From a virus: a DNA stretch of 64,000 nt. Where the stretch lies: the IMG/VR virus record IMGVR_UViG_3300014638_000001; one strand, 5' to 3'. The notes below the pieces were generated by a model. That model had not been told where the DNA came from and did no database searches. It was given only the letters and a program-made list of their open reading frames with translations. Positions 466 to 63,009 of this stretch are shown piece after piece; within the stretch, counting starts at the first letter, position 1; each line of letters opens with the position of its first letter. Position numbers and translations under genes: made by a program.

Positions 466-541
466 GTCGTAGAGCGCGACCGGTCGAGCGCCCTGCCTCT
501 CAAGCAGGTGATAGTCGGTCCAATTCCGACCTACGACGCCA
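466..541 (+). tRNA. tRNA-Glu(CTC), non-canonical (A8, T-loop TCCAATT)
   Basis: Acceptor GTCGTAG/CTACGAC, anticodon arm CCTGC-CTCTCAA-GCAGG, encoded CCA. Confidence 0.85.
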
Positions 542-542
542 T

Positions 543-618
543 GGCGCAGAGCACGAACGGATGAGTGCCTTCTCTTTCAAAGAAGTGATAGTGGGGTCAG
601 CACCCACCTGCGCTACCA
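543..618 (+). tRNA. tRNA-Glu(TTC), non-canonical (A8, T-loop GTCAGCA)
   Basis: GGCGCAG/CTGCGCT, CTTCT-CTTTCAA-AGAAG, T-stem GTGGG/CCCAC, CCA. Confidence 0.8.
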
Positions 619-620
619 AT

Positions 621-697
621 GCCCCGGTCGTCCAACGGCAGGACGCCTGACTTTGACTCAGGAGATCATTTGGGTTCAATTCCCTGCCGGGGTGCCA
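621..697 (+). tRNA. tRNA-Gln(TTG)
   Basis: GCCCCGG/CCGGGGT, CCTGA-CTTTGAC-TCAGG, GGTTCAATTCC, CCA. Confidence 0.85.
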
Positions 698-703
698 AAA
701 ACT

Positions 704-1210
704 TTTCCCGATACGCAAGCGTTTTCGGGTATACTGGGCGTGTCAGTGAGAGACCCTGTCAGGACCGAGGCGCAATCGGAGAAACTGTGCTGGCGGGCGG
801 AGAAAATTAGAGCCGCTTAACAACCCGGAGAAAGACGGGCTTGCATCGTAAATCCGCCGATCGTGAATGCGGATGAGTTTCCGGAACCTCATAAAGTGCC
901 GGTGGGGTGTCGGCTGTCGCCCGGTTCGCCGGCTGTCCGTTATCAGCCGGCACGAATTTCTGGAAGGAGGGTCACGACCATGAAGACAGCGTAGGAGGCT
1001 AACTTCATGATCGTGTATCACTTCAAGGGCGCGCGGCGCCGCTTGCTGGATCGGGAACGCTTGGAACGAGGCGAACCCAAACAGAATCGCGAGCGTAACC
1101 GTTCGCTCAACTGCCGTTTCCCGAAAGAAGGGAAGGCATATCGCCTGAAAGGGCGGGCTCGGTTCAAGACTGGGAAGAAGAACCGGGATCGTAAGAAGAG
1201 CAGTTTGTAG
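704..1210 (+). ncRNA. candidate large (~500 nt) structured ncRNA, family unassigned
   Basis: Long-range complementarity 705-721 with 1040-1057, 752-757 with 968-973, 1109-1114 with 1200-1205; many local hairpins with purine-rich/GNRA loops; lies between tRNA genes. Strand inferred from the array. Confidence 0.6.
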
Positions 1211-1211
1211 G

Positions 1212-1229
1212 CACTCCTATATAGGAGTG
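1212..1229. repeat. 18-bp palindrome CACTCCTATATAGGAGTG, copy 1 (perfect)
   Basis: Intergenic, between the ncRNA candidate and tRNA-Trp. Confidence 0.95.
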
Positions 1230-1234
1230 TTTGT

Positions 1235-1308
1235 GCCCCGGTTGCCGATGGTGAGGCGGAACGGCTCCAACCCGTTTCTTCGGCGTTCGAATCGTCGCTG
1301 GGGTGCCA
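1235..1308 (+). tRNA. tRNA-Trp(CCA)
   Basis: GCCCCGG/CTGGGGT, AACGG-CTCCAAC-CCGTT, GTTCGAATC, CCA. Confidence 0.88.
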
Positions 1309-1309
1309 T

Positions 1310-1387
1310 GCGTCGGTAGCTAAATTGGATTAAAGCTCTTGACTCTTAATCAAGTGATTGCGGGTTCGACTCCCGCCCGACGCACCA
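1310..1387 (+). tRNA. tRNA-Lys(CTT)
   Basis: GCGTCGG/CCGACGC, CTTGA-CTCTTAA-TCAAG, GGTTCGACTCC, CCA. Confidence 0.92.
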
Positions 1388-1394
1388 AAGTTTT

Positions 1395-1471
1395 CAGCGA
1401 GTAGGCAAGCCTGGAGAGCCGCCTGGCCTGGGACTAGGAAATCGTTGGTTCAAATCCAACCTCGCTGACCA
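1395..1471 (+). tRNA. tRNA-Pro(TGG) with C33
   Basis: CAGCGAG/CTCGCTG, CCTGG-CCTGGGA-CTAGG, GGTTCAAATCC, CCA. Confidence 0.88.
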
Positions 1472-1485
1472 GAATTGGAGGCAGC

Positions 1486-2043
1486 ATGACGCGAAGATGG
1501 TTCTTTGGGATGGCCGGTGGTGTTGGTGGCTGGTTCGGCATTAAGCCGGCTATGGCAAAACCTACGCCGCCGGCGATCAAGCAGAGCCCACGGGTTACTT
1601 ATTCTACATTAATCGGCGCTCCTGGATACGTTTTCGTAAGCCTGTATTTTGACGTCGAATGGAATGCAGAAATGAAGATGACAGTTGGGCGCCCCGGTTC
1701 CCATCCATTAACCACGAGTTGGATCACAGGTCCATATCCAGGGAACCCCAGTCGGCGTCGTTGGCTTGGATTCACGTCGATATCTGGGCTCGTAGCTCAC
1801 CCACCGTTACTGCTGACGCTGACGAGTGATCGGCCCTTTGTGGTCCACCAGGTGGTGCCGTCGTACCGGCTGCCAGCGGCTGACAGAATCTCGGAACTTC
1901 GCGAGGCGCGTCATGTTTTGGATGGTCTTACGGACAAGTCGCCGCGGCAACGCGCACTTGAGATTGAATCTGCATCGGCTCGCGAACAGATCCATGAAGC
2001 TCGCGTGCAGCGGTACAACGATGCCATGAAGGGTTTTGATTAA
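1486..2043 (+). CDS. hypothetical protein with twin-arginine (Tat)-like N-terminus, 185 aa
   Basis: GGAGG SD; N-terminus MTRRWFFGMAGGVGG...AMA. Confidence 0.65.
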   Translation: MTRRWFFGMAGGVGGWFGIKPAMAKPTPPAIKQSPRVTYSTLIGAPGYVFVSLYFDVEWNAEMKMTVGRPGSHPLTTSWITGPYPGNPSRRRWLGFTSISGLVAHPPLLLTLTSDRPFVVHQVVPSYRLPAADRISELREARHVLDGLTDKSPRQRALEIESASAREQIHEARVQRYNDAMKGFD

Positions 2044-2081
2044 GCCCGGCTCGTTTAGCGGCCAGGACCGGCGGTTTGTAA
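2044..2081 (+). pseudogene. 5' half of a tRNA (anticodon loop TTTGTAA, Thr-like), no 3' half
   Basis: GCCCGGC-TC-GTTTAGCGGCCAGGAC-C-GGCGG-TTTGTAA, then unrelated sequence ahead of the HNH gene. Confidence 0.5.
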
Positions 2082-2113
2082 CATAGATCAAGCCGTGTTA
2101 TAATTGACATGGT

Positions 2114-2578
2114 TTGGGGACTAAAACATGCAGTAAATGCAAGAGAGAATTGGAGAAGGAGGTATTCGCCCCGAGGGATGGTAATCCAAACAAGCTAGCG
2201 TCATGGTGCCGAGAATGCACTCGTTCTTGGGCGAATCTTCAATATTCAACAAATTCAAAACGTAGGCAGGCAATCGCTGATAATAGAAAGCTGTGTAAGT
2301 TACGGAATTACGCGCTCTTGTCCACGTTGAAGGATTTCCCGTGCATCGATTGCAAGAACCGTTTCCCGGCCTGCTGTATGGATTTTGACCACATCAGAGG
2401 CAAAAAGTTGCATAATGTGGCTTGGTTGGTCAATGTTTCAGAGCGTAGACTTCTTGAAGAGATCGCGAAGTGTGACCTAGTCTGTGCCAATTGTCATAGA
2501 ATCAGGACGGCCAGGCGAGGCGGATGGTTTAAAATGAATGCCGAGATAGCACAAGTTGGCGGTGCGCCGGTTCTGTAA
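2114..2578 (+). CDS. HNH endonuclease (free-standing, in tRNA array)
   Basis: CSKC..CREC zinc knuckle; CIDC..DFDH..CDLVCANCHRIRT HNH motif; TTG start. Confidence 0.85.
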   Translation: MGTKTCSKCKRELEKEVFAPRDGNPNKLASWCRECTRSWANLQYSTNSKRRQAIADNRKLCKLRNYALLSTLKDFPCIDCKNRFPACCMDFDHIRGKKLHNVAWLVNVSERRLLEEIAKCDLVCANCHRIRTARRGGWFKMNAEIAQVGGAPVL

Positions 2579-2616
2579 ACCGGAGGTTGCGAGATCGTGG
2601 CTCGCTCTCGGCTCCA
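2540..2616 (+). tRNA. tRNA-Thr(TGT), C33, aberrant T-loop ATCGTGG
   Basis: GCCGAGA/TCTCGGC, CCGGT-TCTGTAA-ACCGG, T-stem GCGAG/CTCGC, CCA. Confidence 0.75.
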
Positions 2617-2617
2617 T

Positions 2618-2691
2618 GCCTCGGTAGCTCAGTGGCAGAGCAGTGGTTTCGTAAACCACCGACGAGAGTTCAATTCTCTCCCTTGGCTCCA
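2618..2691 (+). tRNA. tRNA-Thr(CGT)
   Basis: AGCTCAGTGGCAGAGC D-arm, GTGGT-TTCGTAA-ACCAC, GAGTTCAATTCTC, CCA; two acceptor-stem mismatches. Confidence 0.82.
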
Positions 2692-2699
2692 GAGTTTAC

Positions 2700-2774
2700 G
2701 CGGTGGTGGCCGAGAGGCAAGGTACCTCACTGTCTATGAGGACAACGCGGGTTCGAATCCCGTCCATCGCGCCA
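2700..2774 (+). tRNA. tRNA-Asp(GTC)
   Basis: GCGGTGG/CCATCGC, CCTCA-CTGTCTA-TGAGG, GGTTCGAATCC, CCA. Confidence 0.9.
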
Positions 2775-2775
2775 A

Positions 2776-2849
2776 GCGGGTGTGGCTCATTGGTTGAGTT
2801 CCAGCCTTCCAAGCTGGCCAAGAGAGTTCGATTCTCTCCACTCGCTCCA
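2776..2849 (+). tRNA. tRNA-Gly(TCC)
   Basis: GCGGGTG/CACTCGC, CCAGC-CTTCCAA-GCTGG, U73, CCA. Confidence 0.92.
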
Positions 2850-2854
2850 AAGTT

Positions 2855-3115
2855 ATGAAGACGATCGAGGTGCTGATTCCTGGTAAGTGCTCGATGATCC
2901 GCGGCGCTCTCGCCACGTGTGCGATCGAGGGGAACCAGTTCGCGATCGATGCGATCGAGACCATCCGGCGTGTGGATATCGGCGAGCCGGTTGGGGCGCG
3001 GTACGCGAAGCAGTTGAATGAGTTTTTGAGCGGGCGTAATTCAGCGGCAGAATGTCTGACTGCCAGTCAGAACGTCGCGGGTTCGAGTCCCGCCGCCCGC
3101 ACCAAGCCCTTGTAG
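2855..3115 (+). CDS. possible small hypothetical protein whose 3' end overlaps tRNA-Gly(GCC)
   Basis: Fills the 180-nt gap between tRNAs with phage-like codons; weak SD. Confidence 0.35.
   Translation: MKTIEVLIPGKCSMIRGALATCAIEGNQFAIDAIETIRRVDIGEPVGARYAKQLNEFLSGRNSAAECLTASQNVAGSSPAARTKPL
3030..3104 (+). tRNA. tRNA-Gly(GCC), A73 discriminator
   Basis: GCGGGCG/CGCCCGC, TCTGA-CTGCCAG-TCAGA, GGTTCGAGTCC, ACCA. Confidence 0.92.
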
Positions 3116-3179
3116 CTCGACGGTCGAGCATTCGGCCTTTAACCGAATGGACTGGGTCCGATTCCCAGCGAGGGCACCA
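3106..3179 (+). tRNA. tRNA-Lys(TTT), C33, T-loop TCCGATT
   Basis: GCCCTTG/CGAGGGC, TTCGG-CCTTTAA-CCGAA, CCA. Confidence 0.85.
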
Positions 3180-3186
3180 AAGATTG

Positions 3187-3445
3187 GATGTAGTTGGTCA
3201 TAGGGCAAGGCTCCTTCAGGGCGGCTGGCCGCCAAGCAAGCGCTATGGCCGTAAAACCCCAAGGGAGACCGAAAGCCCGAAAGGGCATGGAGAATGCCGG
3301 TGAGGACGAAAGAAAACCATGCAGGGTTTGTCCAAGAGGCCGAGCTAGATCCCCCGGAACGGCATGGCGGGCCGGGAACGACACAGGACGGTGAAGCACG
3401 TCCGTCCGAAAGATGACCGCGGGGTTACGAGGTAGCTTCTACATG
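3187..3445 (+). ncRNA. candidate ~260-nt structured ncRNA, family unassigned
   Basis: Ends pair (ATGTAG 3188-3193 / CTACAT 3439-3444); helices GGTCATAG/CTATGGCC, GCCC-GAAA-GGGC, GGCAT/ATGCC, GGAC/GTCC, CCCGG/CCGGG, GGACG/CGTCC. Confidence 0.5.
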
Positions 3446-3447
3446 AT

Positions 3448-3524
3448 GCCGGGCAACCACGCTGGTCGCGTGGACTGGTCCTACAAACCAGCACAGTGGA
3501 GTTCGATTCTCCGGCCCGGTACCA
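3448..3524 (+). tRNA. tRNA-Val(TAC), A8 and C33
   Basis: GCCGGGC/GCCCGGT, CTGGT-CCTACAA-ACCAG, GGAGTTCGATTCTCC, CCA. Confidence 0.82.
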
Positions 3525-3525
3525 C

Positions 3526-3600
3526 CCTCGAGAGGCTCTCCGGACGAGCAGTCGGCCGATAACCGACAGGGAGATGGTTCGATTCCATCCTCGAGGACCA
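3526..3600 (+). tRNA. tRNA-Ile(GAT), A8 and C33
   Basis: CCTCGAG/CTCGAGG, GTCGG-CCGATAA-CCGAC, GATGGTTCGATTCCATC, CCA. Confidence 0.85.
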
Positions 3601-3646
3601 AGTTCTATGACTAAAAGACTGGCAACAGATCAAGATTATATGATCC

Positions 3647-3725
3647 GCTGGCGTAGCTCAAGACCGGCCAGAGCACATGGCTTATAACCGTGAGGTTCTT
3701 GGTTCAAATCCAAGCGCCAGCACCA
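3647..3725 (+). tRNA. tRNA-Ile(TAT)
   Basis: GCTGGCG/CGCCAGC, CATGG-CTTATAA-CCGTG, GGTTCAAATCC, CCA. Confidence 0.88.
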
Positions 3726-3759
3726 GGTTCCGATGTTAGAATACTGAGGAGGAATTTTC

Positions 3760-4140
3760 ATGACGCAGATAGAAGCCGACAATTACAACATCACGCTGCC
3801 CATCACGACAGCCGCGGAAGCGAATGCCTGTTTCATGCAACCCGCACAATTGCAAGACGTTGACGCGAGTGGCAAGACCACGATTTACTTACGGCCGTAC
3901 GAATGTGCGACCAAATCCGGCGCACAGATGCTCGCGACCGCTGTTGGTGGGTCAATCAACGGCCAATTGATCCCCAGCCTGAAGGTCTCGCCGACGATCT
4001 ACACGGTCATCTGGCCAGACAATAGCAGCTCGCTTGCCGGTTGGTATATCTACAACTGGCTGATTCTGCATGGCTGGAACTGGAGTGGCGGAATTGATGT
4101 TGGATCGCCGCTGGCCTGGACCGCGCCGGCAGCGAAGTAA
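3760..4140 (+). CDS. hypothetical protein, 126 aa
   Basis: GAGGAGG SD, ATG, fills gap between tRNAs. Confidence 0.7.
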   Translation: MTQIEADNYNITLPITTAAEANACFMQPAQLQDVDASGKTTIYLRPYECATKSGAQMLATAVGGSINGQLIPSLKVSPTIYTVIWPDNSSSLAGWYIYNWLILHGWNWSGGIDVGSPLAWTAPAAK

Positions 4141-4145
4141 GCTAT

Positions 4146-4219
4146 TCCGGGATAGCTCAGTGGCAGAGCTCAGTTTTGGTAAAGCTGCGACTCGGGTTCG
4201 ATTCCCGGTCCTGGATCCA
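4146..4219 (+). tRNA. tRNA-Thr(GGT)
   Basis: TCCGGGA/TCCTGGA, CAGTT-TTGGTAA-AGCTG, GGTTCGATTCC, CCA. Confidence 0.85.
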
Positions 4220-4225
4220 GATTAT

Positions 4226-4380
4226 GCCGCCGTAGCTCAGTGGTGGATGTGCGGCTTCGAAGCGTTGTCCGGACCGCGCTTCGGGGTGCATCACATCTCC
4301 CATGTGGGGTGACCTGCATGGCTTTGAGAGCACCGACTGTGGAAGCCGGAGCATGGATGGTTCGAATCCTCCCGGCGGCT
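4226..4380 (+). tRNA. His(GTG)-like tRNA with 82-nt structured insertion in the D-loop (4245-4326); irregular anticodon stem, no encoded CCA
   Basis: GCCGCCG/CGGCGGC acceptor; removing 4245-4326 restores GCTCAGTGGTAGAGC; CTGTGGA loop; GGTTCGAATCC. Confidence 0.6.
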
Positions 4381-4390
4381 TTACCCACAT

Positions 4391-4466
4391 TCCGGGGTAG
4401 CCGACGTGGTCAAGGCACTGGCCTGAAACGCCAGCAATAGTCGTTCGATTCGACTCCCCGGAACCA
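4391..4466 (+). tRNA. tRNA-Phe(GAA)
   Basis: TCCGGGG/CCCCGGA, CTGGC-CTGAAAC-GCCAG, GTTCGATTC, CCA. Confidence 0.88.
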
Positions 4467-4536
4467 GACATTAACTGTGGTGGAACCAAGGCACTACGGC
4501 TTGACAGATCGCCGGATTACTTGCAAAATAGAAGAT

Positions 4537-4824
4537 ATGCACCAAACACCACGCAGAGTTCGAATAGGGCTGCGTGACAGAATGCTCGTTAGAATGGCGG
4601 AATCCTGGCCATCCCCTCCGAAGACTTTCAGTAAATTCCAACGTGAACGGCTTCGCAAGTCATTCGAAGTGGTTGATTTGTACTTAGATAGAGGGATGAC
4701 GGTCAGTGAAATCGCCAAAAGGCGGCACTGCACGCATCAGATGATTTCACTGATTTTGAAGCTGGGGATAGATTACCTGTTGGAGACCGGCACGATTCGA
4801 GTTATCGAGGAATTAGCAGCTTAA
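4537..4824 (+). CDS. helix-turn-helix protein (sigma70 region 4-like)
   Basis: RGMTVSEIAKRRHCTHQMISLIL HTH; TTGACA-17-CAAAAT at 4501-4529 favours the ATG 4537 start. Confidence 0.65.
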   Translation: MHQTPRRVRIGLRDRMLVRMAESWPSPPKTFSKFQRERLRKSFEVVDLYLDRGMTVSEIAKRRHCTHQMISLILKLGIDYLLETGTIRVIEELAA

Positions 4825-5135
4825 CTGAGCGCGCTGGCTGCAGAGCCTATCACGTGGCTTGGCTGGCCAACAATGTGCTGTTCTTCCAGGTAACCAAGAG
4901 CCTTCTGCATGCCGAGAGCTAGACAGTGTGTGCCGTGGTAATCCTTCCCACTGTTGACGTGATCTCCTAACCGCTCCAGTGCCCGCTGCATCCCACGCGC
5001 CAGATGGACGGTCTTGTCCATCGCGCGCCCGTCGTTGATCTCGCCTAATGACTTGAAGAAATCTACCGTTGTTGGATTAACCCTTCCAAAAATTCGTACC
5101 CGCTTCGTGCCTTCCGGCAATTTGTTTCGTCCCAT
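4821..5135 (-). CDS. small putative DNA-binding protein (ribbon-helix-helix-like N-terminus), 104 aa
   Basis: MGRNKLPEGTKRVRIFGRVNPTTVDFFKSLG; TTGACA-17-CAAGAT upstream on the minus strand. Confidence 0.5.
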   Translation of the reverse strand: MGRNKLPEGTKRVRIFGRVNPTTVDFFKSLGEINDGRAMDKTVHLARGMQRALERLGDHVNSGKDYHGTHCLALGMQKALGYLEEQHIVGQPSHVIGSAASALS

Positions 5136-5190
5136 CGTATAAACATCTTGAACTCTACGCGATAATCTGTCAACATTAAAGCGATTCTTT

Positions 5191-5634
5191 ATGACTGAAG
5201 TCATCGTTACGGTGTTCGCGACGCTCGCGTTCGTGGCTGCGGTCGCCTGGGGTGTGCTGCTATTCCGGGCGTGGAAGAAACAAAACGAGAGCCGGGCAGC
5301 CCTCCAAGCGGCAATCGAGGCCCATACTGGCAGTTTGAAAGCGATCTCTGAGCATTCCGCCACGCTTGAAAAGATGGTTGACGGATTCATCGGGGTCAGT
5401 AAAACCCAAGTTGAATATCTGGAACGTGTTGAGAAGGCTGTCGACACCTTCCGCAAGGGAATCTTCCAATCAGTGCCGGCACCGGCCGGCGACAGTTTCC
5501 AGGAGTACGATGAAGAGGCGGCCAGCCGTGAGGGTGAAATCCAGGAGTACATGCGTAGCGGGATGCCGCGGAAGGAAGCCGAAGCGCGTGTTGGCCAGGC
5601 TGACATTTGGAAAAGGATGACAGTGCAACGATGA
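5191..5634 (+). CDS. membrane-anchored coiled-coil protein, 147 aa
   Basis: N-terminal hydrophobic helix; ATGA overlap with next gene. Confidence 0.75.
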   Translation: MTEVIVTVFATLAFVAAVAWGVLLFRAWKKQNESRAALQAAIEAHTGSLKAISEHSATLEKMVDGFIGVSKTQVEYLERVEKAVDTFRKGIFQSVPAPAGDSFQEYDEEAASREGEIQEYMRSGMPRKEAEARVGQADIWKRMTVQR

Positions 5635-6434
5635 CCAGGGCTAAACTGATTCAGATCGCTAGGTTCACTTTGCGTGCACACGCCGGCGATCCGCTGGAGC
5701 AGGTTGCGACCGCGCTTGCCGACGGCATTGAGCTCTTTCTGAAGATGGAAGCAGAAATTGGCGAAGAGACTCCAGAACGTTTGCCGGATCCAATTGGAGA
5801 CGTGTTTGACACCAAGGCCGCCGACTTTAAGACCAGCCGGCTACCGGCATCGCCTGCCATCCAGAAGGCGCCGCCGGAAGCTCCCCGCGAGCCACAGCGT
5901 CTCGTTGTCATGCCGGATTCTCCGGAAGCGCGAGAAGCATTGCTGGCGCCGCGGCCCGATCCCGGCGCACCACCGCCATTGCGCCCACCGGAGACTCCAG
6001 CGAAGCTGACCGTTTTGCCGTCTACCGAGCCACTCGCGCAGGCGCCAGGTGAGAAGATTTATTGGCGTGTCGAGAAGATTTCCGAGATTCTTCACGCTCA
6101 GACGCCGCCAAAGATCAAGATCGTCGTCGAACATCCCGAGCGTGGGGAGATCCCGATCATGCTCGAACGGAACGTGGTGATCGGTGCCGGCTTCGATAGC
6201 GTTAAACTCTCCTACAAACCTGTTTGGGCAACTGATGACATGAGCGTGCAAGCCACGTTCTCGACCACTCAGAAGGAACTGCCGATCGGTGAGGAGGTTG
6301 AGAAATTGCAGGCTAACGCCATCAAACTCTATTCCCCACGGCCGCGCACGCTTCGGTCGACCACGCCGCCAAATTACGATCAGAGCTCTTATGGTGCCCT
6401 GCTGCGCATCGGCATTGACGCCGGGACTGTCTAA
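5631..6434 (+). CDS. hypothetical protein with Pro-rich linker
   Basis: ATG at 5631 overlaps upstream TGA. Confidence 0.75.
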   Translation: MTRAKLIQIARFTLRAHAGDPLEQVATALADGIELFLKMEAEIGEETPERLPDPIGDVFDTKAADFKTSRLPASPAIQKAPPEAPREPQRLVVMPDSPEAREALLAPRPDPGAPPPLRPPETPAKLTVLPSTEPLAQAPGEKIYWRVEKISEILHAQTPPKIKIVVEHPERGEIPIMLERNVVIGAGFDSVKLSYKPVWATDDMSVQATFSTTQKELPIGEEVEKLQANAIKLYSPRPRTLRSTTPPNYDQSSYGALLRIGIDAGTV

Positions 6435-6646
6435 TGCCAGTAATCCGCGTAATTATATCGAACGGTGAAATTTACGATCTTGCTGTACCGTCAATACCTT
6501 ACGACTACAGAGTCCCAGTTTTCAAGGCACCCGACTGGAAGCAGATTTTCAGTGGAGAGACCCCAGAGAAGCCAACGGTCGAAACCGAAATCCTAAAGTA
6601 CGACTGCGAACTCAGCCTGAGCGCTGGAATCCCTACCTACCTCTAA
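6434..6646 (+). CDS. hypothetical protein, 70 aa
   Basis: TAATG translational coupling. Confidence 0.65.
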   Translation: MPVIRVIISNGEIYDLAVPSIPYDYRVPVFKAPDWKQIFSGETPEKPTVETEILKYDCELSLSAGIPTYL

Positions 6647-6650
6647 AAAC

Positions 6651-6668
6651 CACTCCTATATAGGAGTG
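6651..6668. repeat. 18-bp palindrome, copy 2 (perfect)
   Basis: CACTCCTATATAGGAGTG, intergenic, upstream of the packaging genes. Confidence 0.95.
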
Positions 6669-6771
6669 CCCGCCAGATTAAACCAAGTTGTCAACTTTTA
6701 TCTCCTAAACAATTGACTTGCTTAGAGATCCCCTTCGGCTGATAATCGTAGTCGGATAACCCTGGGATGAC

Positions 6772-7272
6772 ATGGGAGAGAGATCAAATTTGGGATTCAC
6801 CGCTGAAGATCGTAGGGTCCTGAACCAACTACCGGTCATTCTGCAAAACATGAATGACAAGGTGGAAGGCATGTCTCAGCGCATTCTGCGCATTGAGGAC
6901 CAAAAGGCAACTCGCTCAGAAGTCACTGATTTGGAAAGGCAAATTATCAGTCGCCTAGATAATTTACGCGATTGGATCTCGAAGATTGAAAAGGAAAAAG
7001 CCGATCGGGCCGAACTCTCAACCAACGATGTCGGTGACCACGAAAAGCGGCTCCGGGCGGTTGAAGCTAAGGTGCAGACCCCACCACAGCCATGTCTCGA
7101 TCACGACGAACGGCTCCGCACCCTGGAGCTGGAAGTCACCGGATTGCCGGAGGCTATCGAAGATCTCGGCAAGTTAAAGGAGTGGCGGTTCTGGACGATC
7201 GGCTGGTGCGCTGGCGCCACTCTGGTGATCGTGGCATGCGCCTGGGTAGTCGATTTAGTGGTGAAGCACTGA
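6772..7272 (+). CDS. coiled-coil protein with C-terminal TM helix (XhlA/holin-like architecture)
   Basis: Heptad repeats, then FWTIGWCAGATLVIVACAWVVDLVV. Confidence 0.7.
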   Translation: MGERSNLGFTAEDRRVLNQLPVILQNMNDKVEGMSQRILRIEDQKATRSEVTDLERQIISRLDNLRDWISKIEKEKADRAELSTNDVGDHEKRLRAVEAKVQTPPQPCLDHDERLRTLELEVTGLPEAIEDLGKLKEWRFWTIGWCAGATLVIVACAWVVDLVVKH

Positions 7273-7709
7273 TGCCGGGGACAAAGCGCAAACGGGTGAG
7301 GAAGAGTCTCATCGAGAAACTCCCGGAGAGAATCCGAGAATCCGCGGTGATGCGTCGGCAGTCCATCCGCCCGAGCAGTATGACGAAGTACCAGCAGCAG
7401 ATGCTGTTGCTGTTCATGCCGGAAATCTCCCGGTGGTTTTTCGCTCGGCTCATGGACGGTGTCAAACGCGGGAACAAGACAGATCAGGCATTGTGGGCTG
7501 AAATGGCTGGGCATATCCAGCGCAAGAACGGCATCAACATCAACCAGCAGATCCTGAGCCAGCAGAACGTGAACGCGACGGCGCCGCGGTATTCGATGGA
7601 CCAGATTGTTCGAGAGCTCCAGGAACAAACCGAAATGAAGACGATCGACACGACGCTCGCAATCGAGCCAGGAGGCAGCGATGTTAACAACGTCGCGGTG
7701 GAAGCGTGA
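7272..7709 (+). CDS. putative terminase small subunit (positional), 145 aa
   Basis: ATG coupled to upstream TGA; basic N-terminus; overlaps the TerL start. Confidence 0.45.
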   Translation: MPGTKRKRVRKSLIEKLPERIRESAVMRRQSIRPSSMTKYQQQMLLLFMPEISRWFFARLMDGVKRGNKTDQALWAEMAGHIQRKNGININQQILSQQNVNATAPRYSMDQIVRELQEQTEMKTIDTTLAIEPGGSDVNNVAVEA

Positions 7710-10700
7710 CGTCGGCGTCGATGAACTCGTCGAGCATTTCGATCAGGAGAAGTACCTCGCCGACTGCAGTGTTCTAACGGTCGTGGAGATCCGTCAGCTC
7801 GCTGCCGAGATCAAGCGGTGTCAGGAAAGCTTCGAATACGCCGCGAGAAATTATTTTAAGATCATCAACAAGCAGCGGGAAGATCAGTATCTGACCTTGA
7901 ACGAGGGCCAGGACGTACTGCTGGAGAAAATCTACCGGCTGCGGGATCGCGGTAAACCACAGAAACTACAGATCATCAAAGCACGCCAGCTCGGAGCCAT
8001 GCATCCCACGACCAACGTGTTGACGGCAGAGCTCAATTGGGTACGAATCGATTCTCTCCGGCCAGGCCAGAAAATCATTGGCGTCGACGAGTTCCCGGCT
8101 GGCGGCCGTGGTGTTGGTAGAAAATTCCGTACTGCTGTTGTTCTCAAAAAGTGGACTGTCCAGAAGGAGGCATTTCGGATCACGATGGGAAACGGTGCCA
8201 TCTTGACGGCCACGGGAGATCACCCCTTCTTATGCAAGAAACGCGGCAATGTCCAGACCGAATGGCGATTGACCGCCGAGCATCCAAAAGGCAAGAAATC
8301 CTCATCGCCAATTCGGGTTGGTGATGAGATTAGGTGCGTAATTCCGCCATGGTATCGCGAGCAGGCTTTTGAGTTTGATGACGGATGGTTTGCTGGATTG
8401 ATGGACGGCGAAGGATCCTTGCGGGCGAAGAAAAACGGCGGCATTGAGGCGACGGTATCCCAGGTAGCTGGGCCGGTTCTTAACCGCGCGGCTCGCTACC
8501 TAGACTCGCACGGGTACCCATTCGCTGTTGATGTCGACAAACGAAAGAAGGCGGATAGTACGAAACTTGGCGATCAGCCGGTATACAAGCTTGTGCTGAA
8601 CAGTATCCCGCAGGTATTAAGACTTCTTGGGAACACCAGGCCAACGCGATTTGAGGGAAGGGATATATGGGAGGGAAAAGACTTACCTAACAACGGCGTA
8701 GGCCAATCATGGCAAAAAGTAGTCTCCATTGAATCGATTGGCGAGCAGGAGATGGTGGACATTGAAACCAGCACGGGAACGTTCATCGCGGAAGGCTTTA
8801 TCACCCACAACTGTTCGACATTGATCGAGGCGCTGATCGCCTGGCGCACGATGTTTTTCCCGAATGTAGCCGCGATGGTGGTCTCGCACGTCGGCACGCA
8901 CGCCAGCTTCCTGTTCCAGAAGATGGTCCACATCTACGACCAATTGCCATGGTGGATGAAGCCGATGCTCGCCTCGCGTAAGGAAGAGGAGGGGCTTGTT
9001 TTTAAGAATCCTGAGCCGGAATTACGTCGCGTGGATCCAGGGTTAAATTCCAGTGTGATTGTCCAGGCAGCCACACAGGTCTCGGGCGTTGGTGAGGGCT
9101 ACACCATCAATGCGATGCACTTCTCCGAGTACTGCAGCGTCGACGATTCCAAGGCGCGCGAAATCATTGAGGGTGACATGGTGCACGCGCTGGCGCCCAA
9201 TGTGGGTACTTTCGCGATCTTGGAATCCACAGCGAAGGGTGCTGGCCGGTTTTCTGAGGATTTATGGGTTGCGAATGTGGATCTAGCTGAAAAGGCTGAC
9301 TGGTATACAGTCTTCTTGCCATGGTTTTTTGAAAAACAGCGCGTAGTGGCTCCGGAAGATGGCTGGCGCCCAAGCGAGCCCGAACTCGCGATGCGTTTGC
9401 GTGTCGAGAAAGAGTGGGTGCAGTGCACTCATTGTGGCGAGTTCCGCGAACGTTACTTCAAAACGTTTGACATCAAAGGCAGTGAATGCACGGACTGCCA
9501 CAAGGGTACTCGAGAACCGTATCTCCTCAGCGATCCGCAGCTCGCCTGGATGCAGGAGCGCGTGCTCAATGCGCGCCGGCGCGGTCCGGAATCACTGAAA
9601 GAATTGCGCCAGGAATTGTGCACGACGGCCGAAGAGGCGTTTCAAATTTCTGGCATCGCTGTCTTCCCCGAGGATACGCAGGAGTTTGTGAACGAGACGA
9701 TTTGCCCGGCGGTTTGGACCGGAAACCTCGATCGCAAAGGCAAGTTTCACTGCTCGATTCGGGAAGTCGATGAGAACGGCAAAGAACACTTCAAGTGTTT
9801 CCAGGAATGGTGCACGGTGGATCATCGCTGGGATCTGGAAAGTCCCCTACAGATCTGGGAACTTCCGGAACCAGGCGCGCGGTACTGCATTGGTGTGGAT
9901 ATCGCCGAAGGGTTGGCAACCGAGAAATCGGACTACTCAGTATGCTGGGTAAATAAGATCGGTGATGCGCCGTCGCCAGACACACACGTTGCGACTTATC
10001 GATCGAATTCAATCAATCCGTCTGACCTAGCCGCCGTCTGCAACTTCCTTGGCCGTTGGTACAACGAAGCACAACTCTCGATTGAGTACAACGTCTATCA
10101 GACGACCGGCGACAACGTCAAGAATTTCTATCAGTACCCAAATCTATTCCGGTGGAAGCACTACGACTCCGTGACCGGGATGAACTCGAACAAGCTGCAC
10201 TGGCTCACACAACAGAATTCGAAACCGCAGCTATGGCAGACCGGCGTTCGCGCGCTTCGCGAGCGTTCGTGGTTCATCCACGACAAGATGTTCGCGCACG
10301 AGATGAAACGATTCCAGAAAGAGGAATACGACTCAAAGAAAGCGGAAGCCGAGACGAACTTTCATGACGATGTCATCATGGCTGCGCTGATCGCGCGCTA
10401 CACCAGTCACGATCTTGATTCCTACGACGAGAACGCCTATGCGGCCGCGGATGCTGGGCCGGCATTTGTCCAGATGCTCGAGTGGACGATGGATTGCCTG
10501 ACCTGCAAATTCACATGGCAAGCTAACAATCCAGAAGAGTACAGGCGTTGCCCATCACCGAAATGCAATTCGCCGATGTTGCATGGCAAGCCGAACACCA
10601 AAGAGGGACCCACTAAGCTGGGGGGAAAGTACGTTTTCCAGCAGATCGAAGAAGAAGTCAATGAGCTCGATACCCTGCCGGAAGACGGCACGTTAGAAAG

Positions 10701-10722
10701 GAATTTGGCACCAATCCTATGA
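7681..10722 (+). CDS. terL: terminase large subunit with intein
   Basis: IIKARQLG|CST Walker A; MHFSEY Walker B; ESTAKG; YCIGVDIAEG nuclease; HDDVIMA. Confidence 0.93.
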   Translation: MLTTSRWKRDVGVDELVEHFDQEKYLADCSVLTVVEIRQLAAEIKRCQESFEYAARNYFKIINKQREDQYLTLNEGQDVLLEKIYRLRDRGKPQKLQIIKARQLGAMHPTTNVLTAELNWVRIDSLRPGQKIIGVDEFPAGGRGVGRKFRTAVVLKKWTVQKEAFRITMGNGAILTATGDHPFLCKKRGNVQTEWRLTAEHPKGKKSSSPIRVGDEIRCVIPPWYREQAFEFDDGWFAGLMDGEGSLRAKKNGGIEATVSQVAGPVLNRAARYLDSHGYPFAVDVDKRKKADSTKLGDQPVYKLVLNSIPQVLRLLGNTRPTRFEGRDIWEGKDLPNNGVGQSWQKVVSIESIGEQEMVDIETSTGTFIAEGFITHNCSTLIEALIAWRTMFFPNVAAMVVSHVGTHASFLFQKMVHIYDQLPWWMKPMLASRKEEEGLVFKNPEPELRRVDPGLNSSVIVQAATQVSGVGEGYTINAMHFSEYCSVDDSKAREIIEGDMVHALAPNVGTFAILESTAKGAGRFSEDLWVANVDLAEKADWYTVFLPWFFEKQRVVAPEDGWRPSEPELAMRLRVEKEWVQCTHCGEFRERYFKTFDIKGSECTDCHKGTREPYLLSDPQLAWMQERVLNARRRGPESLKELRQELCTTAEEAFQISGIAVFPEDTQEFVNETICPAVWTGNLDRKGKFHCSIREVDENGKEHFKCFQEWCTVDHRWDLESPLQIWELPEPGARYCIGVDIAEGLATEKSDYSVCWVNKIGDAPSPDTHVATYRSNSINPSDLAAVCNFLGRWYNEAQLSIEYNVYQTTGDNVKNFYQYPNLFRWKHYDSVTGMNSNKLHWLTQQNSKPQLWQTGVRALRERSWFIHDKMFAHEMKRFQKEEYDSKKAEAETNFHDDVIMAALIARYTSHDLDSYDENAYAAADAGPAFVQMLEWTMDCLTCKFTWQANNPEEYRRCPSPKCNSPMLHGKPNTKEGPTKLGGKYVFQQIEEEVNELDTLPEDGTLERNLAPIL
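7996..8811 (+). mobile_element. intein, 272 aa, Ala1 (class 2-like), LAGLIDADG endonuclease motif
   Basis: G|AMHPTT...TATGDHPF (block B)...WFAGLMDGEG...MVDIET (block F Asp)...ITHN|C. Confidence 0.9.
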
Positions 10723-61110: not shown

Positions 61111-61293
61111 ATGCCTTCCAGCCAAGTGATGCACGAGTGGAAAGCGGGTCGGCTTCACAGTGGCCGTGGCAAGAAGACGGCCAGTGGCCGCAGGAAAAAA
61201 GGTCCGATCGTCAAGAAGCGGAATCAGGCTATTGCGATCAAGATGTCGATGGAGCGCAAGGAAAAGAAAGCCCGCAAAAAGACCCGCCGGTGA
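61111..61293 (+). CDS. small basic protein (DUF6496-like), 60 aa
   Basis: AAGGAGG SD; VMHEWKAGRLHSG..GPIVKKRNQAIAI. Confidence 0.75.
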   Translation: MPSSQVMHEWKAGRLHSGRGKKTASGRRKKGPIVKKRNQAIAIKMSMERKEKKARKKTRR

Positions 61294-61554
61294 TATACTG
61301 GCCGCAAGTAGTACCCAATCTGTTAGGGAGTGGGCAGGCAGGTCGTGAGATATTCCTGCCCACGTGCCGGGTAGTGGCTACTGATGCGTTGGTTAAATAT
61401 GCACTTGGCCGCGTGACTGCTCCGACCGAACCTCTGGACTTCCGCATAAAGATTCACGTACAATTGCATCGTAGCAAATTTGGCAACGAAATTTTCATCG
61501 AGTGGTTTCATCGCTCGTAATTTGTTGCAAGCAAATACAATGAGTACGTTGTTA

Positions 61555-61584
61555 TTGCAATTTCACTTGCGTTTTCTGTACCAT
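61555..61584 (+). promoter_or_regulatory. sigma70-like promoter TTGCAA-18-TACCAT facing the 33-aa peptide gene (possible antisense RNA)
   Basis: AT-rich context, TG extended -10. Confidence 0.4.
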
Positions 61585-61656
61585 CAGTTTGTACGTGCTG
61601 CGTTTTTCGGTAAGCCGTAAAAACGGCGACCATTTTGGCGACATTGAAAAAGGCCC

Positions 61657-61758
61657 TCACCAGTTTTGAGGCCAGTGGGGGCAGGGTGTTATCCAGACCA
61701 GAACCACAGCAGCTACGCCGGGCCTGATCTGGATAATCAGGAGGGCAACGAGTTGCAT
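61657..61758 (-). CDS. 33-aa hydrophobic peptide MQLVALLIIQIRPGVAAVVLVWITPCPHWPQNW
   Basis: GGAG SD 8 nt upstream; stop lies in a GGCC..GGCC-TTTTT terminator hairpin. Confidence 0.55.
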   Translation of the reverse strand: MQLVALLIIQIRPGVAAVVLVWITPCPHWPQNW

Positions 61759-61820
61759 CGTTGCTTCTCCATTCTCCGAGGGTATATTTCAGGGCTGCAA
61801 CCCTGAGTCACCTCGGGAAT

Positions 61821-61914
61821 TGGTGCGGTGGGGGTGGGAGTTGCACCCACAAATCCCCCCTTAGGAGATTACGGTTTAAAAGACCGTTCGGCTAGCTGAT
61901 TGCCATCCCCACCG
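61821..61914 (-). tRNA. class II (long variable arm) tRNA-like gene with UUU anticodon and extended acceptor stem
   Basis: CGGTGGGG/CCCCACCG; D-stem GGC/GCC lacking GG; ACGGT-CTTTTAA-ACCGT; 7-bp V-arm; GTGGG-TGCAACT-CCCAC; ends GCACCA. Confidence 0.75.
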
Positions 61915-61968
61915 TTGCTCTAAAGATTCTCACAAAAAACGCTAAACACGGCAATACCGCTCCCTGGG

Positions 61969-62415
61969 TCAGCTTTTTTTGCGCTCGTGCTTCCTGTGTT
62001 CAGCCCATTGCTGAATGAATACCTTGTGGTCCGGGGTGACGCATGTGCCCTTGTAGTCGTTATCAAACGCGGAAGGCATGGCCGCCCGAAGAGATGCCGT
62101 AAGATTGGGTGCCGGTTCTGTTCTGAGCAAGACCAGATTTTCTAAGGCTTCCGCCTCAGCTTGGCCGAGAGAGTCGAGCCATCGTTTCATCTTTACTTTG
62201 TAGCGTTTGCGCTTCCACCAACCCATACACCAGGCTGTGATTCTCCCTGTAAGGTCAACGAAAATAAGGAATAGAACCAGCACCTCGATGACGAGCATCC
62301 ATTCATCGACTGGTCTGGTATCAGGGCCTAGTATGTGCCGCAGGGTGTCCAGCATAATCAGCAAGACAACCAGCAGTCTAGCAAGGCTAGGCCATTTTGG
62401 GGCAGACCAACGCAT
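61969..62415 (-). CDS. membrane protein (two TM) inside the cassette; start uncertain (first ATG lies in the TIR)
   Basis: LLVVLLIMLDTL..WMLVIEVLVLFLIFVDLTG. Confidence 0.6.
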   Translation of the reverse strand: MRWSAPKWPSLARLLVVLLIMLDTLRHILGPDTRPVDEWMLVIEVLVLFLIFVDLTGRITAWCMGWWKRKRYKVKMKRWLDSLGQAEAEALENLVLLRTEPAPNLTASLRAAMPSAFDNDYKGTCVTPDHKVFIQQWAEHRKHERKKS

Positions 62416-62441
62416 CAGTAGCCACTACCACGTGCCGCACG

Positions 62442-62606
62442 TCAAATTCGGTTCTCACCAAACTTCCGCTTGAGTTTATCCTCAGCCGCGCGCATCATTC
62501 GCTCACGGCGCTCTCTCTGGTTAAGCCGCTTGGCAACACGAGCTTGCTGGCGAGTCATGTAGCCTTCCACTTCAGCGTGCACCTTGTCTCGCCGCTTTTT
62601 ACGCAT
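62442..62606 (-). CDS. small basic protein, 54 aa (MRKKRRDKVHAEVEGYMTRQQ...)
   Basis: Overlaps the hydrolase stop; not in the ORF track. Confidence 0.55.
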   Translation of the reverse strand: MRKKRRDKVHAEVEGYMTRQQARVAKRLNQRERRERMMRAAEDKLKRKFGENRI

Positions 62607-63009
62607 GGTAGAAACGGACACCGTCGAGCTGCACCGTCATCTTGTCTACAGCGAACCAGGGATCTCGAGCACGCACTGCGTCGAGCTGATCGAGCGGTTC
62701 GGATTCCCAATAGACAGCGCCGCCCGTGGTATCGGTTGTGACCTGTGCCGGGATCTGTTCGATCTCCTGCCAGGCAGCCCAGTCTTCTGGAATCCCGTCA
62801 TTAGCGAACACGGCATCGGTGCTCCCTGGATTGAACGAGGAGACCTGTTCCGGTTGGAGAATGCAGCGCACTAGCGTGGGGCGAAAAGGAGCCATCCCAA
62901 CCCGGTTGTGCAGCGCCCACCAAATGCCGATACGCGCGGCCTGGGATTGGCCGCGAGCTTCCCGGAAGATTGCAATCAAACACAGCCACACTTCGTAAGT
63001 GAAAGTCAT
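62599..63009 (-). CDS. SleB/Hydrolase_2-type cell wall hydrolase (endolysin candidate)
   Basis: CLIAIFREARGQ..HNRV..QVSSFN..TTGGAVYW..GVRFYH. Confidence 0.85.
   Translation of the reverse strand: MTFTYEVWLCLIAIFREARGQSQAARIGIWWALHNRVGMAPFRPTLVRCILQPEQVSSFNPGSTDAVFANDGIPEDWAAWQEIEQIPAQVTTDTTGGAVYWESEPLDQLDAVRARDPWFAVDKMTVQLDGVRFYHA

Follow-up and report, generated by a model that had tools for sequence, protein, structure and literature searches.

Within 64,000 nucleotides of phage DNA (IMG/VR virus record IMGVR_UViG_3300014638_000001, here called the window), which come from a roughly 100-kb phage from peat soil, lies a 1,060-bp element at positions 61370–62429 that is very probably a mobile insertion cassette (MIC). 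Such a cassette is non-autonomous, and this one in all likelihood derives from a 3.5-kb, passenger-carrying insertion sequence (IS) of the IS1 family that has its transposase in a single open reading frame (ORF). As the first-pass annotation of the window had read, its minus strand carries a class II tRNA-like gene, a 33-amino-acid ORF and a gene for a protein with two transmembrane segments. What is new is the setting of an IS1 cassette in a phage, with autonomous and non-autonomous alleles of one site and with an RNA gene among the cargo. Phage genomes seldom contain insertion sequences. This one has become fixed in a peat phage that is abundant, and its two kinds of allele at one site form a natural pair for testing trans-mobilisation.

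The boundaries of the element are exact. Its 24-bp terminal inverted repeats (TIRs; the coordinates of all features are collected in the table) are 100% complementary and 1,012 nt apart, and they are flanked by an exact 8-bp direct repeat, each where the first-pass annotation had placed it. An alternative reading of the duplication, and the one that the repeat tool reports, is 10 bp, CCACGTGCCG, because the last two bases of the TIR are CC. No further copy of the TIR 24-mer was found in the window at up to three mismatches, with 0 matches in 100 shuffles. No transposase is encoded between the TIRs, where the longest ORF is 148 amino acids, and the window copy is thus non-autonomous. G+C content is 0.44–0.55 within the element and 0.58–0.65 in its flanks. 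The insertion point, again as annotated, lies between convergent phage gene blocks just after a hairpin, which overlaps the left duplication by 2 nt, and the minus-strand cargo points the same way as a phage operon whose end lies 5 nt short of the duplication.

A cognate autonomous element is seen in a second allele of the same site. A 103,375-bp JGI contig (L006), reached through members of the 148-amino-acid protein's cluster with a different C-terminus, agrees with the window at 99.1% identity in one phage flank and 99.7% in the other; between these flanks, at 3987–7496, it carries a 3,510-bp element whose site, TIRs and duplication are those of the window element. Its core encodes a 314-amino-acid protein, a single-ORF IS1 transposase with zinc finger, helix-turn-helix and IS1 DDE domain in one frame, which scores 39.9 bits against Pfam DDE_Tnp_IS1 (PF03400; cut-off 24.1) and 41.9 bits against the NCBIfam IS1/IS1595 zinc-binding domain (NF050000; cut-off 28), and matches the NCBIfam IS1 family transposase (NF033558) at E 8e-26. 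An autonomous IS with the ends of the cassette, which the first-pass annotation had left to be looked for, is thereby at hand. The other ORFs of the L006 core are of 89, 85, 145 and 75 amino acids, and a normal tRNA-Asp(GTC) gene lies at 6961–7034 (ARAGORN; Rfam 48.5 bits).

The wider family of this transposase is consistent with the assignment. The L006 protein falls in a very large set of proteins of about 310–320 amino acids that their source names IS1 family transposase, many of them from Terriglobia, with the nearest relative 66% identical. We fetched 80 genomic loci of relatives, mostly from Acidobacteriota and some from Planctomycetota; TIR pairs beginning GGTAGTG(T/G) could be defined in about 40 of them, most with 8-bp duplications, which bears out the earlier attribution of the GGTAGTG ends to the IS1 type. 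Some 30 relatives have GGTAGTG itself or a near variant of it. These bounded relatives are 1,850 to 6,337 bp long (median about 3.4 kb), and their lengths and extra ORFs mark them as a passenger-carrying IS1 group. Among 150 non-transposase ORFs of the relatives are XRE-type helix-turn-helix, Peptidase_M78, P63C, SocA/Panacea and HicB domains, as well as TIR (the protein domain of that name), GmrSD and dCTP-deaminase-like domains; by its predicted domains, this cargo is of toxin–antitoxin and defence type. A maximum-likelihood tree places the phage transposase as sister to a Bryobacterales copy (support 98/92), a position that would fit an acidobacterial host.

Comparison of the two alleles shows what they share and where they part. 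The 453-nt left arm has two differences between the window and L006 (99.6% identity), and the right end, including codons 1–110 of the 148-amino-acid ORF, is 100% identical. Within codons 111–139, 16 codons differ, 11 of them synonymously and five by conservative non-synonymous changes, and past the stop codon of the ORF the two sequences are unrelated. The excess of synonymous changes marks this ORF as a real gene under purifying selection. A third allele (L125) agrees with the window at three sites where the two alleles differ and otherwise with L006, which sets its breakpoint about 20 nt further on. Such mosaic borders point to recombination with a diverged copy of the element, and not to a simple deletion. 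The mini type of the ORF was found on 50 contigs and the full-length type on four; the L006 transposase is also present on three more short contigs, and two contigs (L017 and L125) each link phage flank to core-specific sequence.

The history of the site may accordingly be pictured in two steps. An IS1-type transposase would have cut and pasted the element between two convergent phage operons, right after the terminator-like hairpin, duplicating 8 bp in the process. The window allele would have retained both ends, the 148-amino-acid gene and the 453-bp left arm with the 33-amino-acid ORF and the terminator, and the 2.6-kb core of the full-length allele (transposase, four small ORFs and tRNA-Asp) would have been swapped, by homologous recombination between diverged copies, for 147 bp that hold a promoter-like motif and the tRNA-like gene. 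A single transposition into the phage lineage, followed by this exchange of the core, is the course of events that we favour, although with some reserve. The cargo would probably be transcribed by read-through from the phage operon and from the tRNA's own promoter, with transcription stopping at the terminator-like hairpin at the left end of the cargo. The cassette itself would be movable only with the cognate transposase supplied in trans.

Several observations weigh against this reading or limit its reach. An exact empty allele, which the first-pass annotation had proposed to look for in sibling phages or reads, was not found: the predicted empty-site 24-mer is absent from viral contigs, and a check through the flanking 60-amino-acid gene (80 blocks indexed) met the cassette in 24 of the 24 longest contigs. 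A mini-element with other flanks was likewise absent from viral, genome and metagenome scans, although the collections are incomplete and this is a weak negative. The score of the L006 protein against NF033558, at 91 bits, is below the curated cut-off of 100. L017 and L125 stop soon after they enter the core, and the full-length allele is seen in contigs assembled from short metagenomic reads, in which a chimeric path through the shared arms of about 450 bp into a host-borne copy is conceivable. All copies of the tRNA-like gene are identical and therefore provide no covariation evidence that it is maintained. Either allele may have come first, and mobility of the cassette in its own right is a proposal. 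The annotation's view, drawn from the intact TIRs and duplication, that the insertion is recent holds in a relative sense only, given the presence of the cassette in all of these longest contigs and the lack of an exact empty site.

The same intact ends, together with the dominance of the mini form and the breaks of L017 and L125 just inside the core, would also be expected if the 1,060-bp mini-element had itself been mobilised in trans by a host-borne IS1 relative, as the first-pass annotation proposed, the full-length "allele" having arisen by recombination afterwards or reflecting an assembly that strayed into a host copy; recombination, after all, requires a second copy somewhere anyway. 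We consider this rather unlikely. The genome and metagenome TIR scans revealed neither a mini copy at another site nor any copy, mini or full-length, with host flanks, and in the 103-kb contig the same duplication encloses the full form. Recombination in place is therefore no less likely an origin of the mini form than its separate mobilisation. Another idea, which we hold to be possible without being the probable one, is that the cassette is a decaying relic in which the tRNA-like gene is a pseudogene and the small ORFs are functionless hitch-hikers. ARAGORN in its default setting rejects the tRNA, whose D loop lacks GG and whose T loop is non-canonical, no family was found for any cargo ORF, and selection is not measurable on identical copies. 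Against decay, all stems of the cloverleaf are intact, the codon differences in the 148-amino-acid ORF are 11 synonymous against 5 non-synonymous, a metatranscriptome contig matches that ORF exactly, and the cassette is present in every contig of this phage that we read; phage genomes usually shed ballast.

Two further explanations concern the inverted repeats themselves. With perfect 24-bp repeats in inverted orientation on either side of about 1 kb, the segment looks like an invertible DNA switch served by a site-specific recombinase. Here, however, the repeats are bracketed by an 8-bp direct repeat, a signature of transposition; the segment has the same orientation in every contig examined, no invertase gene was found among the searched neighbouring proteins, and the cognate IS1 transposase has been identified, which together make a switch very improbable. 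That the repeats are an assembly artefact, for which only the general risk of metagenome contigs speaks, is hardly credible: the structure is the same in NCBI, ENA, JGI and Logan assemblies from many samples, and contigs from three DNA runs carry the cassette with 0 differences. The contigs of those three runs contain no joints, empty site or alternative allele, although contigs drop rare variants.

A blastn search of the element against 50,697 phage records gave no match, and a 20-mer of the TIR was absent from a collection of one genome per species. Relatives of the phage lack the block, in line with the first-pass reading: in phages whose hydrolase is 76–83% identical at the amino acid level (L007–L011 and L104), the hairpin after the DUF6496-like gene is kept and is followed directly by the convergent gene, or by other small genes, with no IS present. 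The identical 24-nt TIR does occur, with other cargo, in two non-phage metagenome contigs. One of these (L018) contains a 68%-identical transposase fragment and a homologue of the 75-amino-acid ORF beside other cargo, and matches the first 38 nt of the left arm; in the other (L020), the TIR adjoins a bacterial obg gene. At 1636–1720 of L018, an element end with the identical TIR is followed after 7–8 bp by a second, diverged end of the same type, so that two related elements appear to be stacked at one target. A degenerate TIR pattern gave five single matches in viral contigs, which lacked a partner repeat or transposase and were taken as chance.

Among known systems, the closest parallels are named ones, and the annotation, which knew of no named element of this kind, is corrected on this point. 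Single-ORF, passenger-carrying members of IS1 are called "transporter IS" (Siguier, Gagnevin & Chandler 2009, as cited in PMC3129680). With the IS1 family the element shares GGnnnTG ends, TIRs of about 24 bp (within the range of about 20–30 bp), a duplication of 8 bp (within 8–9 bp) and relatives that carry passengers. It differs in that the window copy lacks the zinc-finger and DDE transposase, which is present in the same-site L006, in its location in a phage genome, and in the tRNA or tRNA-like genes carried by its group; we found no paper that describes IS1 elements with such cargo. MICs are gene-carrying, TIR-bounded derivatives without a transposase (PMC3129680; the concept also in PMC3913671), and MIC231 derives from IS231 (De Palmenaer et al. 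2004, as cited in PMC3129680). As in a MIC, the TIRs are identical to those of the cognate IS and bracket passengers without a transposase, presumed to be movable in trans. MIC231, however, belongs with the IS4 family instead of IS1, and here there is an RNA gene in the cargo and one phage site was found, in place of copies at several sites with different duplications. Miniature inverted-repeat transposable elements are also non-autonomous, TIR-bounded and flanked by duplications, but they are short, non-coding and multi-copy, whereas this element is 1,060 bp long, carries genes and occupies a single locus. The cassette also recalls phage morons, extra units of lower G+C content with their own terminator between phage operons, with the difference that its route of acquisition is visible here in IS ends and a target duplication.

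The tRNA-like gene is the least ordinary part of the cargo. The Rfam tRNA model scores it at 38.4 bits (gathering threshold 29; E 7e-6), with an insertion of about 20 nt at the variable arm; ARAGORN misses it by default and calls an 89-nt tRNA-Lys(ttt) at a relaxed threshold. The minimum-energy fold (−39.9 kcal/mol, z −2.8) is a five-arm cloverleaf with stems of 8 bp in the acceptor (counting C-1:G73), 3 in the D arm, 5 in the anticodon arm, 8 in the variable arm and 5 in the T arm. Infernal aligns the acceptor branch as 7/5, a reading in which G73 is present, and the minimum-energy fold gives 8/5; the variable arm is 7–8 bp, the T loop is UGCAACU, and a weak D arm without GG closes a 9-nt loop. 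A canonical tRNA-Lys(UUU) would have a class I body, G18G19 and a T-loop UUCRA, none of which is found. Against five Acidobacteriota genomes nothing matched below E 0.07, which excludes a recent origin from a host tRNA of these five, and a 21-mer from the T arm and acceptor occurs, among viral contigs, in the same phage only. ARAGORN by default finds 16 ordinary tRNA genes at 466–4466 of the window. These include tRNA-Lys(ttt) at 3106–3179 and tRNA-Asp(gtc) at 2700–2774, so that both anticodons of the IS alleles are already represented among the phage's normal tRNAs.

Allo-tRNAs and irregular tRNAs, GGU and GCU types among them, have been described from Acidobacteria and peat metatranscriptomes (Mukai et al. 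2017, PMC5389517), where a long variable arm and G73 are named as what SerRS needs; IS1 is not named in that paper. The window gene shares with allo-tRNAs the long variable arm, G73 where allo-tRNAs have G or U, an anticodon that is not a serine one and fits the body poorly, and weak pairing of D loop and T loop, and related IS copies likewise carry GGU and GCU tRNAs, as in the irregular Acidobacteria set. It differs in the acceptor branch, which in allo-tRNAs is by definition of 12 bp in an 8/4 or 9/3 arrangement and here 7/5 (or 8/5), and in the D arm, with a short stem and a 9-nt loop here and a long stem with a tetraloop there. In a 296-nt contig from a wetland metatranscriptome, 43 of 46 positions agree with the 3' part of the gene (window 61811–61856), but the anticodon region reads CUUAAAA, that is, UAA instead of UUU. 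A diverged sister of the tRNA module is thus present in an RNA library, where it may be expressed or may be carried over as DNA.

Transposase relatives carry tRNA genes too. Inside 8 of the 40 bounded elements ARAGORN finds a tRNA gene, five of them confirmed by Rfam at 42–69 bits. A same-strand tRNA lies within 400 nt upstream of the transposase at 11 of 78 loci, as against 2 of 71 control stretches; its 3' end is about 120–155 nt before the transposase start, or about 200 nt in L058, in the seven cases measured. The anticodons at the 11 loci are ACU (two), CUG (four), GGU, GCU, GGC (in a 91-nt tRNA), UUA (90 nt) and one that could not be parsed, and in several the anticodon does not match the tRNA body. 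Five loci (L021, L029, L037, L049 and L058) share a conserved leader after the tRNA. The trait is scattered across the acidobacterial part of the tree and confined to Acidobacteriota copies, none of the Planctomycetota copies in the tree having a same-strand upstream tRNA; one Bryobacterales copy (L087) has an opposite-strand ARAGORN call at relaxed threshold. The tRNA-bearing relatives L021 and L029 are each present as a single copy in their own genomes. The irregular tRNAs of Acidobacteria are in this way tied to a concrete vehicle, one in which recombination can exchange the tRNA module and which can bring that module into a virus.

What the module does is a more speculative matter, as are the roles of translational RNA and small membrane effectors that the first-pass annotation gave to the cargo. 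It might be a functional, exchangeable unit of promoter and tRNA in an Acidobacteriota IS1 lineage, with a toxin-like small ORF beside it or the transposase downstream of it, and in the phage it might act as a serine-accepting missense suppressor for AAA/AAG codons, or as a non-translating decoy or regulatory RNA, for instance against nucleases of tRNA-Lys(UUU), in which case IS1 would spread allo- and irregular tRNAs, also into phages. As a whole we think this proposal unlikely. If charged and used, the RNA would be a mobile missense suppressor; otherwise it would be a tRNA-shaped regulatory or decoy RNA. The idea of a private tRNA for rare codons of the transposase finds no support in this set: elements that bear a tRNA do not use its cognate codon more often in their transposases (counts against the median: AGT 2 and 1 against 1, CAG 6–7 against 7, ACC 3 against 7, GAC 5 against 8). 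AAA is not enriched in the 148-amino-acid ORF either. For a choice of target by homing to promoters, no −35 box was found at the required distance, by eye only. Two side observations concern tRNA genes in or beside IS1 copies. In L006, at 6949–7043, the tRNA-Asp sits on a 19-nt pairing of leader and trailer (89% complementary) that lengthens the acceptor stem, which is unusual for a plain tRNA gene; and in L054 an IS1 relative (3240–5844) lies about 50 bp from a host tRNA gene (3117–3190; Rfam 70.8 bits) that is outside the element.

The 148-amino-acid protein is an orphan. Searches of Pfam, PHROGs, NCBIfam and PADLOC assign it to no family, a comparison with 5.8 billion proteins returned members of its own 90% cluster only, and its best Atlas score, 0.78, is uninformative. 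All contigs with the protein belong to the same phage of about 100 kb, with the same neighbours. An exact 157-nt contig, from the same wetland metatranscriptome as the 296-nt one, covers 62115–62259, within the ORF. No phage holin was identified, and a holin-like use of the protein is conceivable. The 33-amino-acid ORF is identical between alleles and thus shows no variation that bears on its coding status. The minus-strand RNA of 61640–61830, a stretch of 191 nt downstream of the tRNA-like gene, is unusually structured, with a predicted fold of −81.9 kcal/mol (z −5.9), and has no match to any Rfam family; together with the ORF and the terminator it resembles, as modelled, type I toxin mRNAs. 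Upstream of the tRNA gene, a similar short motif (GTGAGAA..ATCTTT) is present in both alleles, and TGTGAGAAT may serve as a promoter, to judge from the motif.

Table. Features of the cassette and its insertion site in the window (strand left empty where it does not apply)
Feature	Position	Strand	Remarks
Hairpin	arms 61330–61338 and 61355–61363		after DUF6496-like gene (61111–61293), just before the insertion point
Target-site duplication, left copy	61362–61369		ACGTGCCG, 8 bp; direct repeat flanking the left TIR
Left TIR	61370–61393	+	24 bp; begins GGTAGTG (IS1-type GGnnnTG)
Left-arm subterminal stretch	61394–61654		richer in A+T; no convincing ORF; common to the full-length allele
Intrinsic-terminator-like hairpin, then T run	61655–61671	−	end of the presumed minus-strand cargo transcription unit
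33-amino-acid hydrophobic ORF	61657–61758	−	putative; Shine–Dalgarno and AUG within a predicted hairpin
Mini-allele-specific segment	61823–61969	−	147 bp in place of 2,597 bp (L006 4447–7043)
Irregular class II tRNA-like gene	61826–61913	−	anticodon UUU; loop CUUUUAA
Extended −10-like motif	61926–61934	−	TGTGAGAAT; 12 nt before the tRNA-like gene; from the allele alignment
148-amino-acid orphan ORF	61969–62415	−	ATG inside the right TIR; hydrophobic stretches at about residues 10–30 and 35–64
Right TIR	62406–62429	−	24 bp
Target-site duplication, right copy	62430–62437		ACGTGCCG, 8 bp; direct repeat flanking the right TIR

The phage character of the window is plain from a large terminase at 7681–10722, HNH endonucleases and tail-fibre-like proteins. 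The element is adjoined by a relative of cell-wall hydrolases (62599–63009) and by a RusA-like gene, and the two-segment membrane protein of the cassette is encoded on the same strand as the hydrolase relative, two genes after it.

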